Assembly: GCA_963790205.1 (NCBI GenBank)
Contig: CAWBNQ010000003.1
Coordinates: 480,001 to 544,000, forward strand
Origin: Nitrospirota bacterium
GTDB lineage: Bacteria > Nitrospirota > UBA9217
Direction of reading: 5' to 3'
DNA length: 64,000 nt
The translations under genes were made by a program, and so were the position numbers. Positions 16,362-49,352 of the stretch are shown here, in pieces. Under the pieces are notes generated by a model. That model made no database searches, was not told the DNA's origin, and saw nothing but the letters and a program-made list of their open reading frames with translations. Within the stretch, counting starts at the first letter, position 1. Every line of letters begins with the position of its first letter.

Positions 16362-16434
16362 CCGGTCGGAATTACTGTTTTCTAAATCCGGGTCCATCTG
16401 TGAAATCTGCGGATAGATTGGTTTTTCGCGTCTT
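16362..16434. repeat. Partial copy of the ATCTGCG-type palindromic repeat (IS110 target family)
   Basis: GGAATTAC...ATCTGTGAAATCTGCGGATAGATTGGTTTTTCGCGTCTT matches the flanks of IS copy 2 and the reverse complement of 41535-41560. Confidence 0.7.
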
Positions 16435-31821: not shown

Positions 31822-31906
31822 AGTTCTTGATAAAGCCAAGCCCTTCGCGAGAAGGGAGCGGAAAGCGACGGATCTTAAAAGACGAAGACGGCCGAGCTGC
31901 CGAAGG
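31822..31906 (+). ncRNA. c-di-GMP-I (GEMM-I) riboswitch
   Basis: AGCCAAG-CCCTTC-GCGA-GAAGGG-AGCGGAAAG-CGACGGATCT...AGACGGCCGAGCTGCCG follows the GEMM-I layout; TTGACA at 31788 upstream. Confidence 0.82.
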
Positions 31907-39272: not shown

Positions 39273-39384
39273 AAGCTGAAAGCGATCAGTCCGCATAGGG
39301 CCGCAGATTTAAAAACCAATAATTTCTGTCTGGCTTGATCTGTGAAATTTGCGTAATCTTCTATGTTAAAAAGCAAGTCTTTCT

Positions 39385-39625
39385 TTTGGCATAAACGCAT
39401 CTCTTTTATTAAGGAGCGATTTATAGCGAACGCAATCTTCAAACCCAATCTTCTATGAGCAGACAGTCTTCGTTGATGAAGAAAACGCTGCATTGCCTTG
39501 ATTAATTATGAAGGCGTGGGTTCGTAGTCTGTGGAAGCACAGACGGCATCTTTCGATCCGCTGTAGATTACGCAAGACGATACCCACGGTGAAACACGGG
39601 TTTAAGATCGGCTATAAATATCGGT
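39385..39625 (-). ncRNA. Predicted bridge/seek RNA region of IS110 copy 1 (exact ends unknown)
   Basis: Stem - internal loop - stem with a GAAA tetraloop at 39515-39588; loop strands match both target flanks. Confidence 0.8.
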
Positions 39626-39628
39626 TTT

Positions 39629-40699
39629 TTATTGAACAACCGCCGTAGTGTATTCTTGTTGGTTCTTTAAAACGTACCGGACGCGGTTTAACAGCTTCCG
39701 GGCGATCCGAACGATAGCTTTGGTCTTTGTCATGTGTTTGCACAGCTCATTGAACGCCATCATTAGGGCAGGGTCTTTTCGCACCGCCGTCCAAGCGCTT
39801 TCGATCAAGACGAAGCGAAGCTGGGCGTTCCGCCTGCCGGTCATGCCGGTTTTAAGGTCCTTTTCCCCGCTGGAATCGGTATCGGGGATAAGGCCAACGT
39901 AGCTGCAGAGTTTGTCGAGCGTCTTGAAACGATTGATGTCATACAGCTCCGTCAAGAGCATCATCGCGGTCAAGGTACTGATTCCCGGCACGGTCTTAAG
40001 TATCCGGACATTGTTCCGATAGTCGTCCGAATTGGCCAGGGCGCGGATCGCCCGGTTCATCTCGGCAATGATATGCCGAAGATGCTTAAGCTCGTCTAAG
40101 TGTATCTTGAGTGATAGGTTGCCGCTGGCCCGCTCCATTTGTACGGACTCGATCCAATTGATGAAGCGTTTGGACCAGTAACCGTTGATGAAATCGTCCG
40201 GTATGTCGATACCGTAAAAGCTCAGGATCGACTTGATCTGGTTCTTGCAGCGAGTTTGTTTCCTTACCATGCTATTTCGAGTACGAAGGAGGCTGCGGTC
40301 CTCGACTTTTGGTCGCGTAGGGACATAGATCCCTTCGATGTCGCCGTTTCTGAGGCTCCGGGCTAGCTTGCGGCAGTCCACCCGGTCGGTCTTGCCTGCG
40401 CGCTCTTTGTCTTTTGTGGGCACATCCGCCGGATTGACCACGAGACATTGTATGCCTCGCTCCTGAAGCCGGTCATGTATCCAGAAACCGGAGTAACCGG
40501 CCTCATAGACCGACTTATAGGCTGCACCCGGAAAATTGCGTTTGAGATAGTTTACCAGCACCCCGACCTCCGGAGGTTGTGAAAAGGTCTTATGCTCGAA
40601 CTGATCGGTAAAAATACTGATGCTCCAACTTTTCTTATGAATGTCCATACCGACATAAATTTGTTGACCAGTGAAATCGAGTCTGCTAACGTTATTCAT
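39629..40699 (-). CDS. IS110-family DEDD recombinase/transposase
   Basis: GMDIHK, YEAG and KTDRVD (DEDD), VPGIS, and DSSG with the conserved Ser; AGGAG RBS. Confidence 0.95.
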   Translation of the reverse strand: MNNVSRLDFTGQQIYVGMDIHKKSWSISIFTDQFEHKTFSQPPEVGVLVNYLKRNFPGAAYKSVYEAGYSGFWIHDRLQERGIQCLVVNPADVPTKDKERAGKTDRVDCRKLARSLRNGDIEGIYVPTRPKVEDRSLLRTRNSMVRKQTRCKNQIKSILSFYGIDIPDDFINGYWSKRFINWIESVQMERASGNLSLKIHLDELKHLRHIIAEMNRAIRALANSDDYRNNVRILKTVPGISTLTAMMLLTELYDINRFKTLDKLCSYVGLIPDTDSSGEKDLKTGMTGRRNAQLRFVLIESAWTAVRKDPALMMAFNELCKHMTKTKAIVRIARKLLNRVRYVLKNQQEYTTAVVQ

Positions 40700-40821
40700 G
40701 GCAAGTCTCCTTTTGGTGTATTTTGGTCCGGGATAGACCTAATATACCTTAAGTCAGACTTGCCTTTTTAATCATAAGGTCTGTGGATAAAAAAGACCTG
40801 AGGAGTTGCAGTCGTATGTTT

Positions 40822-41484
40822 TTACGATGGAGCACCTGATCTCAATTTTCTCGACAGCATGTCCGCGCACCTGAGCGGCTCCGGTATCCGGTATTTGCCA
40901 GTGCAGTTAAGCATGATGCGGATCGTGCTGTCGAGGTCGATCTTATGGCCCGGCGATACGAACAGGGGCCTGACACTGTCCTTTGTCCGCACTACCGCGC
41001 CGACGGTCCTGCTCTCATACGTGAGCTCGGACCAGCTTCCTTTTCGTCTGCCCGGTTCCTCGAATTCTCCGACAAGCCTTGTTTTTGCGCAACCGATCGC
41101 GGGGATGTTGAGCAGAATCCCGAGATGCGAAGCGATCCCGATCCCCCTCGGGTGCGCAATGCCCTGCCCGTCGACGAGAATGACATCGGGCGTTGTCGTC
41201 AGTTGCTTGACTGCCGCGATGATGGCAGGGCCTTCCCGGAATGAGAGAAAACCGGGAATGTAGGGGAATCTCAGTTTTTCAATGGCGGTCGCCTGTTCCA
41301 GAGGCGTGAGCTCGGGATAACGGTAGAGGCAGGCAGCTGCATACACCTGGTTTTCCGAGAACGCAGCGTCCACTCCTCCCACGTATCGCGGTTCACCTCT
41401 GAGAGGAACGATCTGCACCCGCTTTCTCAGAATTTCCCGCAGCTCTCGCGCCTGTTCTATCGAGATCGTTTTCGGCCATTTCAT
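40822..41484 (-). CDS. nfi: Endonuclease V
   Basis: PYIPGFLSFRE, DGQGIAHPR, GCAK, SPGH and YRIPEP motifs. Confidence 0.95.
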   Translation of the reverse strand: MKWPKTISIEQARELREILRKRVQIVPLRGEPRYVGGVDAAFSENQVYAAACLYRYPELTPLEQATAIEKLRFPYIPGFLSFREGPAIIAAVKQLTTTPDVILVDGQGIAHPRGIGIASHLGILLNIPAIGCAKTRLVGEFEEPGRRKGSWSELTYESRTVGAVVRTKDSVRPLFVSPGHKIDLDSTIRIMLNCTGKYRIPEPLRCADMLSRKLRSGAPS

Positions 41485-41534: not shown

Positions 41535-41648
41535 AAGACGCGAAACCAATCTGTCCGCAGATGTCGCAGATGGCCGCAGATTTTAAAACCAATAATTCCG
41601 GACGTTTTTTCTGTGAAATCTGCGTAATATGTGGATAAAAAAGACTTG
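41535..41648. repeat. Uninterrupted copy of the IS110-targeted palindromic repeat
   Basis: AACCAATCTGTCCGCAGAT...GGCCGCAGATTTTAAAACCAATAATT...CTGTGAAATCTGCGTAATATGTGGATAAAAAAGAC equals the joined flanks of IS copy 1. Confidence 0.85.
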
Positions 41649-43349: not shown

Positions 43350-43607
43350 TAAGCCGTTGCGCGCCACGTCGCTATGGGATTTCAAATGATTTGTCAGCTT
43401 AAAACGAAGTCCGCGGAGACAGCATTGGCAGGGGCGTGAGACTTGTTCGGGTGAAAAGCGGCGATTCCGGACTGCTCCGCAAGCCCCTTTCGTAAAAGAC
43501 TATACAGGAAAAAGGGCTTTTGGGCAATAGGGTATCGTTGCGAAAGACGTGACTTTTTTCGGGGATGGATGTCGGAGTCGGGTTGTTCATTTCAGTGCTT
43601 GTGGTAA

Positions 43608-44802
43608 TCATATTCGCGGCGGTCCTTTGCAGCGCGCGGGCTGCATGATCTCGATTGTGCGCATTCTGCGTTCGCCGCAGGCAGGGCATTTGGCCAGCGT
43701 CAATGCCGGCGATCCTGAGCAAAGCTTCCTGCCACGTCTCAGTCTTCTGCTCCGCCTCGTTCTGATCAACGCAGGCCAGAAGCTCTCTGCATTGGTCGAG
43801 TTTCTTTCTGCGGCATCTGTTTCCCAACAGACCGTAATGCCTGATTTTGACAAACCGGTCGGGCAGGACATGAAGCAGGAACCGCCGGATGAACTCATCG
43901 GCGTCCACGGTCATGATCTTGCTTTTGTTGCTGTCCGCGTAGTCGCGCCACCGGAAGGAGATCTTGTCGTCCATCATCTTCACGAGCCGGTGATTGCTGA
44001 TCGCGATACGGTGGGTGTATCTGCCGAGATACTCAAGAACGCCTTTTGTTCCGTCGAACGGCGGCTTACAATAGACGACCCACTGCTTCTTGTACAAATC
44101 GGCGATGAAGGCCTTGAAAACTCCCGGCGACGCAAGATGGCTTACGACGCCGGGGTAGACAAGTTTGTTCTCGGCACGGAGTTTTTTCAGATAAGCGAGA
44201 AACTTCCCCCGAAAGAGTTTCGACATGACCTTGACGGGAAGGAAAAAGCCATTCTTGCATGATTTCCATTTCCGTCCGCCCTTGGACAATCCGCCGCCGG
44301 TGACGATGTTGTGGAGATGCGGATGATCCATAAGGTTCTGTCCCCAGGTGTGCAGGATCGAGATAAAACCGATTTCCGCGCCCAAGTGTTTCTGCGTATT
44401 CGAGAGTTCCGTCAGGGTTTCCGAAACGGCCTTGAACAGGATCCCGTAGAGGGCCTCCTGGTTCCGGAGCACAAGGGGATTGAGTTTATCGGGGATGGTA
44501 AAAACGACATGGAAGTAAGGAATGGGAAGCAGGTCTTCTTCCCGGGCCTCGATCCACTGCTCTTTTTTAAGGAACTGGCACTTGGGGCAATGCCGGTTTC
44601 TGCAGGAGTTGTACGAGATCACTTTTGTCCCGCAGTGCTCGCATTCGTCCACGTGACCGCCTTGGTCGGCGGTGCGGCAGGTCTCGATCGCCCGCATGGC
44701 GCGAAGACGATTCAAGGGCATGGGATGAGCGTTCCGGTAAAGAGGACCGTACCGGCGAAAGATGTCCGCGACTTCGATCTGTAGGCTATCTCGCGTGTAC
44801 AC
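43608..44802 (-). CDS. IS91-family (HUH, Y2) transposase; +1 frameshift near 43697
   Basis: SCRNRHCPKCQ zinc domain, LHTWG, HPHLH, YLGRY and IRHYG motifs; the typical C-terminal CPACG...KGPP lies in the alternative frame ending at 43608. Confidence 0.9.
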
Positions 44803-44823
44803 CGCGGGTGTCGCGTGTGCAGG

Positions 44824-45681
44824 CTACGAGGTTTGTGGAGGATTTAAGAAGGGGCCTAAGTCCAGAGGGCTCACGATCTTTGAGAGGTTCTTTTTGCTCA
44901 CGTGGAGATAAATAGTGGTCGTTCTCACCGACGCATGGCCGAGCAGAAGCTGAATATAGTGCAGATCAGCTCCCGACTCCAGCAGGTGTGTGGCGAAGCT
45001 ATGCCGAAGCGTGTGACAACTTGCCGGCTTCGTGATGCCGGCTTTTTTCTTCGCGCGTTTGAACGCCTCTTGGACGGTGCTAATGGAAATGTAGTTTTCA
45101 GGCTTTTCTCCCGGAAAGAGCCAATGCGTCGGTCTATATTCTTTCCAGTATTCCCGAAGCGCTTCCAGCGCTACCTGGGATAAAAGGGTATACCGGTCTT
45201 TTTTGCCTTTGCCCTGGTCCACGCGTATCAGCATACGGCTGCTGTCGATGTCCGTGATCTTGAGCCGGGCGGTCTCGCTCGCCCGGAGCCCTGCCGAGTA
45301 GGTCACCATCAGCATCACGCGCTGCTTCAGGCTGGGAGTGGCTTCGAACATGGCCTGTACCTCCTCCCGTTCGAGAACGATAGGAAGTGTCTTGGTCGTC
45401 TTCGGATAGGGAATCTTGTCCATCACCCAACCTTTGCCCAGCGTCGTTTCATAGAGGAACCGCAGCGCGCTGTAAGTTATCTTCAGGGTGGATAGCGATA
45501 CCTTCTTATCCCGGACGAGGTAAAGCAGATACGCTTTGACATCGCCGTCTTCCAAAAGGTCGGGCGGTTTTTTAAAATGGCGTTCCATATCGCGCGCCGC
45601 CCGGTGATACAATGATTGCGTCTTCGGGGCTAATCCTCGAAGCACCATGTCGCCCTGCATCTGTTCTTTGAACGTTTCCAT
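44824..45681 (-). CDS. Tyrosine recombinase / integrase
   Basis: YSAGLRASE, GKGKKDR, HTLRHSFATH, LLGH and TTIY; N-terminal SAM-like domain. Confidence 0.95.
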   Translation of the reverse strand: METFKEQMQGDMVLRGLAPKTQSLYHRAARDMERHFKKPPDLLEDGDVKAYLLYLVRDKKVSLSTLKITYSALRFLYETTLGKGWVMDKIPYPKTTKTLPIVLEREEVQAMFEATPSLKQRVMLMVTYSAGLRASETARLKITDIDSSRMLIRVDQGKGKKDRYTLLSQVALEALREYWKEYRPTHWLFPGEKPENYISISTVQEAFKRAKKKAGITKPASCHTLRHSFATHLLESGADLHYIQLLLGHASVRTTTIYLHVSKKNLSKIVSPLDLGPFLNPPQTS

Positions 45682-47791: not shown

Positions 47792-47885
47792 GCAGGTCTT
47801 TTTTTATCCACAGATTACGCAGATTTCACAGATGAAACAAAGCCGGAATTACCGGTCTTAAAATCTGCGGCCGTCTGCGTAATCT
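47792..47885. repeat. IS110-targeted repeat, reverse orientation, interrupted by IS copy 2 (continues at 49309-49325)
   Basis: Reverse complement of the 41535-41648 copy. Confidence 0.85.
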
Positions 47886-47910
47886 TCTATGTTAAAAAGC
47901 AAGTCTTTCT

Positions 47911-48151
47911 TTTGGCATAAACGCATCTCTTTTATTAAGGAGCGATTTATAGCGAACGCAATCTTCAAACCCAATCTTCTATGAGCAGACAGTCTTCGTT
48001 GATGAAGAAAACGCTGCATTGCCTTGATTAATTATGAAGGCGTGGGTTCGTAGTCTGTGGAAGCACAGACGGCATCTTTCGATCCGCTGTAGATTACGCA
48101 AGACGATACCCACGGTGAAACACGGGTTTAAGATCGGCTATAAATATCGGT
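47911..48151 (-). ncRNA. Predicted bridge/seek RNA region of IS110 copy 2
   Basis: Same sequence as in copy 1; guide segments at 48054-48061 and 48091-48100. Confidence 0.8.
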
Positions 48152-48154
48152 TTT

Positions 48155-49225
48155 TTATTGAACAACCGCCGTAGTGTATTCTTGTTGGTTCTTTAAAACG
48201 TACCGGACGCGGTTTAACAGCTTCCGGGCGATCCGAACGATAGCTTTGGTCTTTGTCATGTGTTTGCACAGCTCATTGAACGCCATCATTAGGGCAGGGT
48301 CTTTTCGCACCGCCGTCCAAGCGCTTTCGATCAAGACGAAGCGAAGCTGGGCGTTCCGCCTGCCGGTCATGCCGGTTTTAAGGTCCTTTTCCCCGCTGGA
48401 ATCGGTATCGGGGATAAGGCCAACGTAGCTGCAGAGTTTGTCGAGCGTCTTGAAACGATTGATGTCATACAGCTCCGTCAAGAGCATCATCGCGGTCAAG
48501 GTACTGATTCCCGGCACGGTCTTAAGTATCCGGACATTGTTCCGATAGTCGTCCGAATTGGCCAGGGCGCGGATCGCCCGGTTCATCTCGGCAATGATAT
48601 GCCGAAGATGCTTAAGCTCGTCTAAGTGTATCTTGAGTGATAGGTTGCCGCTGGCCCGCTCCATTTGTACGGACTCGATCCAATTGATGAAGCGTTTGGA
48701 CCAGTAACCGTTGATGAAATCGTCCGGTATGTCGATACCGTAAAAGCTCAGGATCGACTTGATCTGGTTCTTGCAGCGAGTTTGTTTCCTTACCATGCTA
48801 TTTCGAGTACGAAGGAGGCTGCGGTCCTCGACTTTTGGTCGCGTAGGGACATAGATCCCTTCGATGTCGCCGTTTCTGAGGCTCCGGGCTAGCTTGCGGC
48901 AGTCCACCCGGTCGGTCTTGCCTGCGCGCTCTTTGTCTTTTGTGGGCACATCCGCCGGATTGACCACGAGACATTGTATGCCTCGCTCCTGAAGCCGGTC
49001 ATGTATCCAGAAACCGGAGTAACCGGCCTCATAGACCGACTTATAGGCTGCACCCGGAAAATTGCGTTTGAGATAGTTTACCAGCACCCCGACCTCCGGA
49101 GGTTGTGAAAAGGTCTTATGCTCGAACTGATCGGTAAAAATACTGATGCTCCAACTTTTCTTATGAATGTCCATACCGACATAAATTTGTTGACCAGTGA
49201 AATCGAGTCTGCTAACGTTATTCAT
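48155..49225 (-). CDS. IS110-family DEDD recombinase/transposase
   Basis: Translation identical to 39629-40699. Confidence 0.95.
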   Translation of the reverse strand: MNNVSRLDFTGQQIYVGMDIHKKSWSISIFTDQFEHKTFSQPPEVGVLVNYLKRNFPGAAYKSVYEAGYSGFWIHDRLQERGIQCLVVNPADVPTKDKERAGKTDRVDCRKLARSLRNGDIEGIYVPTRPKVEDRSLLRTRNSMVRKQTRCKNQIKSILSFYGIDIPDDFINGYWSKRFINWIESVQMERASGNLSLKIHLDELKHLRHIIAEMNRAIRALANSDDYRNNVRILKTVPGISTLTAMMLLTELYDINRFKTLDKLCSYVGLIPDTDSSGEKDLKTGMTGRRNAQLRFVLIESAWTAVRKDPALMMAFNELCKHMTKTKAIVRIARKLLNRVRYVLKNQQEYTTAVVQ

Positions 49226-49352
49226 GGCAAGTCTCCTTTTGGTGTATTTTGGTCCGGGATAGACCTAATATACCTTAAGTCAGACTTGCCTTTTTAATCA
49301 TAAGGTCTGCGGATAGATTGGTTTATCTTGTCATCTGAAGGTCAGTCGAGGC

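Follow-up and report, generated by a model that had tools for sequence, protein, structure and literature searches.

A predicted bridge RNA in the right end of an IS110-family insertion sequence from a Nitrospirota bacterium

The reference bridge RNA systems are the IS110-family elements IS621 and ISCro4 (Durrant et al. 2024, PMC11208160; Hiraizumi et al. 2024, PMC11208158; PMC13626964; PDB 8wt6, 9t56), and both the bridge RNA mechanism and the covariation argument used to recognize it were published in 2024 (PMC11208160, PMC11187229). A second described set, ISEc11, ISKpn4, ISPa11 and ISPst6 (Siddiquee et al. 2024, PMC11187229), is of the IS1111 type. According to that source, the seekRNAs of these elements are encoded in a non-coding region downstream of the gene, and the strict definition of the type includes near-perfect 11–13-bp subterminal inverted repeats with extensions of 7 (or 6) and 3 bp. 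Two further IS110-family elements, ISPpu10 (bioRxiv 10.64898/2026.03.19.712850) and ISPpu9 (PMC12288879), are reported from repeated intergenic palindromes.

The element of interest lies in a 64,000-nucleotide stretch of DNA from a Nitrospirota bacterium (hereafter, the window). Its mechanism is already known; the element is a fresh, clear example of it, and not a separate kind of system. Judged from sequence, it appears to work like IS621 and to be organized like the IS1111 elements, and it belongs to the IS110 family in the broad ISfinder sense (a DEDD RuvC domain and a Transposase_20 domain with the catalytic serine are present), the IS1111 type being assigned by organization. The best explanation of the evidence is an intact, recently active element of IS1111-type organization, whose recombination would be guided by a bridge RNA. 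The element and its gene are as follows.

39360–40780, minus strand: IS110-family insertion sequence, copy 1; 1421 bp between CT cores at 39358–39359 and 40781–40782.
47886–49306, minus strand: element copy 2, 100% identical to copy 1 (coding sequence 48155–49225; RNA model match 47954–48144).
39629–40699, minus strand: intact 356-aa DEDD recombinase (D19, E66, D105, D108, S277-G278; Pfam PF01548 and PF02371).

The ends of copy 1 were set by six full genomic copies with differing flanks, together with the conserved ends of homologues; the identical run of the two window copies spans 39350–40783 and 47876–49309. All six full copies in the source genome (G000; 4.34 Mb in 14 contigs) are 100% identical. 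Two partial copies (C3:1073730–1074430 and C11:1–729) overlap by 3 bases, and the C3 half continues into ordinary genes; the pair may be one broken insertion or an assembly fault. The guide-encoded target described below is the 14-bp GCGTAAT-CT-GTGGA. The six full copies share one orientation and a CT core, and their rebuilt 14-bp sites carry 0, 1, 1, 1, 1 and 2 mismatches to this target (the rebuilt site of the split pair carries one). In 6/6 full copies, insertion is specific for site and orientation, with a 2-bp core and nothing further duplicated. Empty paralogous repeats exist as well: CT-core sites still unoccupied in the genome number one exact match, four with one mismatch and 17 with two.

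Several other features of this genome were recorded. Two other IS110-family elements, 24–27% identical to the window protein, are present in two copies each (C1:496675, C1:230706, C2:81259, C5:26460), and neither is matched by the RNA model (R1) built here. Between the two IS110 copies are neighbouring genes for an IS91-like Y2 transposase and a tyrosine recombinase (43399–45681), and a c-di-GMP-I-GGC riboswitch is found at 31826–31905 (Rfam RF03167, 61.9 bits). Contigs of run X3 join 39277 to about 40820–40840, with neither the repeat nor the element (window 39277–40840); these contigs may come from another strain or organism.

The recombinase contains the Pfam domains DEDD_Tnp_IS110 (PF01548) and Transposase_20 (PF02371), and passes the NCBIfam equivalog NF033542, 'IS110 family RNA-guided transposase' (210 bits; cut-off 140). 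Its catalytic residues, placed by alignment to IS621/ISCro4, recur among 81 proteins as follows: D19, E66, D108 and G278 in 81/81, D105 in 72/81, and S277 in 76/81 (T in the other five). The DEDD plus S-G active site is common to IS621/ISCro4, and a GL-P----SG motif to the IS1111 seekRNA elements (PMC11187229). The branch is large: of 7151 candidates, 5548 proteins match at E up to 0.001, and identity is 77–100% in the best 120. Its nearer loci belong to Nitrospirota, Syntrophales and other deltaproteobacterial bins. Searches that included the best 30 plasmid records over full length gave no named relative above 34% identity. The best named match among the plasmid matches listed is ISHvo10 (28.6%, E 3e-31); ISSso6 and ISEc45 reach 27–28%, and similarity to IS621 and ISCro4 is weak (E 8e-7 and 5e-6). 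With 356 aa and only 21% identity to the IS4321-family proteins, the window protein also differs from those of the IS1111 seekRNA elements. A literature search combining IS110, bridge RNA and Nitrospir found no paper. On these comparisons the branch appears to be undescribed among named elements, and its protein to be far from the tested bridge recombinases. The branch may sit in a published dataset already, since the comparison took in part of the Durrant tree table and the 2025 orthologue screens lie outside it; in Supplementary Table 1 of PMC11208160, rows 147–149 (Bacteroidetes without an ISfinder name) show, by eye, motifs like those of this branch.

An earlier note, made from the letters of the window, had proposed that a hairpin downstream of the gene spells out the insertion target of the element in the two strands of an internal loop. 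The sequence that it quoted is present on the minus strand at 39515–39588, and again in copy 2. The parts of this hairpin, as we now define them, are given below.

39515–39588, minus strand: target-binding loop hairpin of 74 nt, equivalent to a short seekRNA; drawn from the alignment and pair counts.
39565–39573, minus strand: left target guide (9 nt), target positions 1–7 plus the CT core; exact in the window, covaries with homologue flanks.
39529–39535, minus strand: right target guide (7 nt), reverse complement of the core plus target positions 10–14.
39527–39528, minus strand: target-loop handshake dinucleotide AC, complementary to donor positions 6–7.

The geometry is a 14-bp target with a 2-bp CT core, read by a 9-nt left guide and a 7-nt right guide that is followed by a 2-nt handshake. 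IS621 has the same 14-bp target and donor, the same CT core at positions 8–9 and the same guide lengths (PMC11208160), and the supplement of that paper gives an IS621 template with the identical 14-mer geometry. The first loop strand (39574–39565) does equal the left flank plus core of both copies, as proposed. The second (39535–39528) is the reverse complement of the right junction, exactly in copy 1 and with one mismatch in copy 2, but its last base is not part of the guide: the A at 39528 is invariant in 53/53 aligned RNAs whatever their target, and is hence the first handshake base. The shared core had been given as TCT; it is CT, the third base varying among homologue flanks. The GAAA tetraloop is present in the window copy and in some relatives, but is not conserved in the alignment.

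The wider assignment, to the two-guide target loop of IS110/IS1111 bridge (seek) RNAs, is borne out by the recombinase family, the catalytic residues, the downstream position of the RNA and the order of the guides. The predicted RNA (39434–39609) indeed lies downstream of the 356-aa gene (39629–40699), as had been noted, in a non-coding region of 269 bp compared with an 81-bp left end, and the long region is on the same side in homologues; a downstream non-coding region is likewise reported for ISEc11, ISKpn4, ISPa11 and ISPst6 (PMC11187229). In gene orientation, the guide matching the top strand precedes (is 5' of) that matching the bottom strand, which is again the order reported for those four elements (PMC11187229). 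Two features set the element apart from IS621/ISCro4 as published: the RNA is in the right end here and in the left end there, and the orientation of insertion relative to the CT strand is opposite. Whereas the earlier note covered the target half only, the donor arm, the closing helix and the promoter predicted to form on circularization are additions of the present analysis.

If the loop strands are guides, they should change with the flanks of homologous elements, and this is what was found. Homologues were drawn from genome contigs (63 loci) and metagenome contigs (the best 80 of 200). Fixed patterns were applied to those loci that had sufficient flank and a protein identity of 50% or more, and 86 of these plus the window copy yielded a target loop; nine further full-length loci missed by the pattern stay outside the counts, and the covariance model finds the RNA in 9/9 of them. 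The permutation test used one locus per distinct guide, omitted the window and ran 5000 permutations. The left guide agrees with the reverse complement of the downstream flank at 6.28 of 7 non-core bases, compared with 3.37 when shuffled (50 distinct guides), and perfectly in 31/50; both figures leave the register free by one base, chosen per locus, which raises agreement. In the strict register, agreement is 4.44/7 against a null of 2.38. The right guide agrees with the upstream flank at 4.26/5, compared with 1.62 shuffled (39 guides). None of the 5000 permutations reached the observed agreement, and the crossed controls stand at their null (2.11 vs 2.10; 1.50 vs 1.41).

Kin share guides, and so the comparison was repeated on disjoint closest pairs. 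Only positions at which the two guides of a pair differ were counted. For the left guide, with the register chosen per locus, 104 positions follow the flank in 35 such pairs, three are swapped and 29 do neither; for the right guide, 64 follow, none is swapped and 30 are other (34 pairs). There are 64 distinct guide pairs among the 87 parsed loci, and the two guides have changed at least 47 and 44 times on the protein tree. Two target guides that match opposite strands and covary with the flanks are thus present, as expected of a bridge or seek RNA, and the contrary outcome named in the earlier note (the same loop with different flanks) was not encountered.

These results bear on the simplest alternative, namely that the matches arose by chance or as DNA relics, the right end having captured pieces of the repeat, and that targeting is protein-based. 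The genome is rich in these palindromic repeats, and the contigs of the runs examined show no discrete RNA (although such contigs are unable to show one). Yet the guide columns alone change with the flanks, in opposite orientations and in a fixed register, at least 44–47 times on the tree, and proteins that are 82–95% identical already carry different guides with matching flanks. On the strength of this covariation we consider the relic or chance reading refuted in silico, and give it next to no probability. That 39515–39588 is part of a bridge or seek RNA directing the insertion of the element is, in our assessment, very highly probable.

Two observations on the homologues concern where they insert. 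The guides of relatives L092, L094, L100, L101, L107, L109, L110, L117, L123 and L131 address palindromic repeats of other families (GTCATT-type and others), and it seems that the branch switches repeat families through changes of guide. At L014, L021, L086, L092, L094, L107, L117, L128, L131, L132, L135 and L137, the right junction is one base shorter than the guide and end predict, for which a shifted end or an altered resolution of the core is one reading that we offer. A proposal that the insertions of relatives lie in coding repeats whose frames they restore was dropped: only 1/44 rebuilt sites has an open frame of 180 or more codons.

The fold drawn in the earlier note, with outer and inner stems around open guides, is recovered by alignment; it is not the minimum of the single sequence. 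For the isolated 74 nt, the minimum is −28.2 kcal/mol and pairs both guides, compared with −24.6 for the open-loop form (3.6 kcal/mol above the minimum), and the right guide is paired at four or more of its seven positions in the minimum fold of 31/70 homologues. Single-sequence folding, whose minimum hides both guides, was consequently rejected as evidence of an open loop, and the alignment was used instead. RNAalifold on 53 RNA sequences (alignment A1) gives both stems with both guides open, and 25 pairs, 13 of which have changes on both sides. In the outer helix of the target hairpin 88.9% of cells are paired and 5/11 pairs are changed on both sides; in the inner helix, 91.5% and 7/10. Extension of the fold beyond the target hairpin gives the remaining parts of the RNA.

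39434–39609, minus strand: predicted bridge RNA of ~176 nt, made of a closing helix, the target hairpin and a donor arm; its ends are placed by the closing helix.
39496–39499, minus strand: short left donor guide, matching donor positions 3–6 only (4/8).
39459–39491, minus strand: inner hairpin of the donor arm, with an RCAG-C / G-U-CUGY neck as in the target hairpin; 100% paired.
39448–39456, minus strand: right donor guide (39450–39456) and handshake AT (39448–39449); the guide is exact in the window, the handshake complementary to target positions 6–7.

The units of 74 nt and 152–176 nt compare with 82–96 and 148–172 nt in the IS1111 seekRNA elements (PMC11187229), and with about 177 nt in IS621/ISCro4 as published. 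Over the fuller structure, 85.9% of cells are paired, against 79.6% when shuffled and 34–41% when slid. The closing helix (39598–39609 with 39434–39446) has changes on both sides in 11/12 pairs; it was drawn from the window's own fold, so that the slid control leans in its favour. A separate outer stem for the donor loop (70–72% paired) was rejected as weaker than this competing helix, which places the donor guides in a multiloop, unlike IS621 and in line with what Durrant et al. describe in many IS1111 orthologues (PMC11208160). A pairing of the 5' segment with the tail of the right donor guide was also rejected, showing no excess (107 of 500 shuffles).

Model R1 matches seven places in G000, all at copies of the element; unlike the case of ISPpu10 and ISPpu9, the genome contains no stand-alone RNA copies by this measure. 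It matches in 4/60 related genomes, and among distant relatives gives weak matches (E up to 1) at 8/21 loci, seven of them downstream of the gene. No Rfam family was found at the bridge RNA, the window's one Rfam match being the riboswitch elsewhere. Behind the RNA, the right end runs to 370–467 bp, compared with about 270, with extra palindromic sequence in L002–L004, L006–L010, L019, L093, L103 and L107–L109; in L005 and L081, other DNA follows the RNA.

The donor arm reveals two guides of unequal length. Firstly, the seven bases after the inner hairpin of the donor arm equal the right end of the element plus core, in the window and in 73/73 loci. This right donor guide falls into three sequence classes, and shows four parallel changes with the right end on the tree and no discordance in 67 loci. 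Secondly, the left donor guide agrees at 0.6 or more only at positions 3–7 over 30 distinct pairs, and its match reflects conservation, not covariation, because the donor positions are nearly invariant; it has 4 nt here compared with 8 in IS621. Donor guides that match the joined ends, a further feature of bridge and seek RNAs, are hence present with a covarying right guide and a left guide of 4/8 positions only.

The handshakes follow the pattern of IS621/ISCro4, in which each is complementary to positions 6–7 of the partner. The target-loop handshake is identical to the dinucleotide that opens the left end in 72/75 loci, including six with the rarer AT, and on the tree shows three changes with one discordant locus of 69. 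Across homologues, the first base of the donor-loop handshake tracks the target (0.54 vs 0.34), and the second base gives no signal (0.11 vs 0.11). Both handshakes of the window are exactly as the IS621 design rule gives, with two Watson–Crick pairs before strand exchange and four after, and therefore such as would favour insertion (PMC13626964).

The imbalance of the donor arm invites a second reading, in which the short target hairpin is the working RNA, the protein reads the ends through the subterminal repeats, and the downstream arm is part of a precursor or an accessory. For ISEc11, the 70–100-nt form is reported to be the more abundant and to be sufficient (PMC11187229); here the left donor guide is just 4 nt, the subterminal repeat is long, and the donor arm lacks a well-supported outer stem of its own (70–72% paired). 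Against this, the right donor guide and the right end undergo four parallel changes with no discordance in 67 loci, and conservation of the donor neck (100% paired, no pair being changed on both sides) equals that of the target neck. We regard this reading as rather unlikely, and retain the full bridge RNA as the preferred one.

The ends of the element contain the following features.

39362–39380: subterminal inverted repeat, right end; 19 bases pair with 40756–40776, with two 1-nt gaps.
40756–40776: subterminal inverted repeat, left end; contains the −10 hexamer at 40771–40776.
39371–39376, minus strand: −35 hexamer; on circularization, 17 bases would separate it from the −10 hexamer.
40700–40764, minus strand: left-end hairpin, in which 40756–40764 pairs 9/9 with 40700–40708, just before the start codon (49226–49290 in copy 2).

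The subterminal repeat pairs at 19/21 bases, is interrupted by two gaps and leaves an 8-bp spacer at the junction; in this it differs from the near-perfect 11–13-bp repeats with 7+3 extensions of IS1111 elements (PMC11187229). When the ends are joined in silico, a TTG-type hexamer falls 17 bases before a TATGAT-type hexamer, and a −35/−10 layout with 17–18 bases between is present in 66/68 loci with both ends (17 bases in 64), the pattern having been written after the window junction was seen. This predicted layout resembles the junction promoter of the IS1111 seekRNA elements (PMC11187229). A scan of the linear element for promoters and terminators gave nothing above shuffles.

The left-end hairpin has 7–9/9 pairs in 21/22 distinct arm pairs of relatives, with changes on both sides. 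By analogy with IS10 and IS50, where hairpins damp translation of read-through transcripts, it could cover the ribosome-binding region and have the same effect. No end-to-end circle joint is listed in the contigs of four runs. Only 6–7% of the words occur in two RNA runs; their contigs span the gene and, in X19, also the right end of relatives, a form of data from which neither a discrete RNA nor its strand or level can be read.

The account that we favour rests on the anatomy of the RNA, the covariation of guides with flanks and ends, the conserved fold, the intact active site and the identical copies; by analogy with IS621 and ISEc11 (PMC11208160, PMC11208158, PMC13626964, PMC11187229), we infer RNA production and the RNA ends, the circle, promoter activity, the RNA–protein complex and the chemistry. 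In this account, (i) rare excision would yield a circle, (ii) the joined ends would form a sigma-70-type promoter, (iii) a single transcript would comprise the recombinase gene and the downstream RNA, (iv) the target hairpin would pair with both strands of the 14-bp site GCGTAAT-CT-GTGGA and the donor arm with the circle junction, and (v) the DEDD/serine recombinase would swap strands at the CT core, the rise from two to four handshake pairs favouring insertion by the published rule. The guide would be tuned to one arm of a dispersed, ~90-bp palindromic intergenic repeat, members of which are found in the window.

47803–47885: palindromic repeat entered by copy 2; its other arm is the exact empty target at 47807–47820, minus strand.
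39298–39359: degenerate palindromic repeat entered by copy 1, continuing at 40783–40795.
41550–41640: empty member of the same palindromic repeat family, with the target at one mismatch.
16395–16420: further window member of the palindromic repeat family.

The sites are mostly arms of imperfect intergenic palindromes of ~90–110 bp, built of 9–10-bp subunits; the arm pattern has 29 matches in the genome and forms six inverted pairs. REP-like targets are likewise known for IS621/ISCro4 and, among the IS1111 elements, a REP for ISPa11 (PMC11187229), and ISPpu10 (bioRxiv 10.64898/2026.03.19.712850) and ISPpu9 (PMC12288879) resemble the window element in their use of repeated intergenic palindromes. 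Searches for genes linked to the repeat led to rejections: a RAYT link, as for REP/REPIN sequences, fails in that the arm pattern occurs within about 1.5 kb of 0/7 Y1_Tnp loci, and a link to GxxExxY or four-helix genes in that the pattern occurs at 1/12 loci examined (of 17 fetched). A literature search on GxxExxY and the repeat found nothing related.

The target may also need the DNA hairpin of the repeat, that is, sequence and structure together, as reported for ISPpu10 (bioRxiv 10.64898/2026.03.19.712850). In 5/6 rebuilt empty sites, a predicted stem takes in 12–14 of the 14 target bases, and three sites have hairpin z scores of −3.3 to −6.5; two others are weak (−1.1, −1.8), and the site at C1:804367 has no hairpin (+0.8). 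Most genomic near-matches lie in these palindromic repeats anyway, and the association with the repeat therefore needs no structural gate. We give such a gate a small but appreciable chance, and prefer recognition by the guides.

A sister branch in Bacteroidota departs from the single-loop plan. Five IS110 relatives (L033:2290–2530, L034:1515–1780, L035:1505–1770, L207 and L214), 37–38% identical to the window protein and from four genomes, have two complete target hairpins in tandem, with different guides, and one donor arm. L033, L034 and L035 (three genomes) were found among 18 distant full-length loci with enough downstream DNA, L207 and L214 being from the fourth genome. The loop that fits the flank is the first in L034 and L207, and the second in L035 (downstream flank); the left guide bases at the start of the first loop of L035 are those of the single loop in L040 and L042. 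The flanks carry GTT-type ends reminiscent of attC sites. A DNA search of 401 genomes for further tandem-loop elements returned the source only, a pattern scan of viral contigs gave nine matches, none with the transposase, and protein searches of 54 and 152 genomes added the fourth tandem-loop genome. Tandem target loops in one bridge RNA were not found in a literature search.

We tentatively suggest, with somewhat less than even confidence in the whole, that the branch reads its own ends with a minimal left donor guide of ~4 nt, the rest being read through the protein or the subterminal repeat, and that the Bacteroidota sister branch has a natural two-address bridge RNA, which would be a route to new guides. 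If true, a minimal left donor guide would relax donor design. Because the right donor guide covaries with the end and the left is nearly absent, the element is also a clean case for the question of bridge RNA versus seekRNA only in IS1111-type elements. On its sequence, it offers a compact, apparently active bridge recombinase, far from those tested, in which all guide positions are mapped, and the 64 distinct guide pairs of the 87 parsed loci form a natural library that makes direct testing and reprogramming possible.
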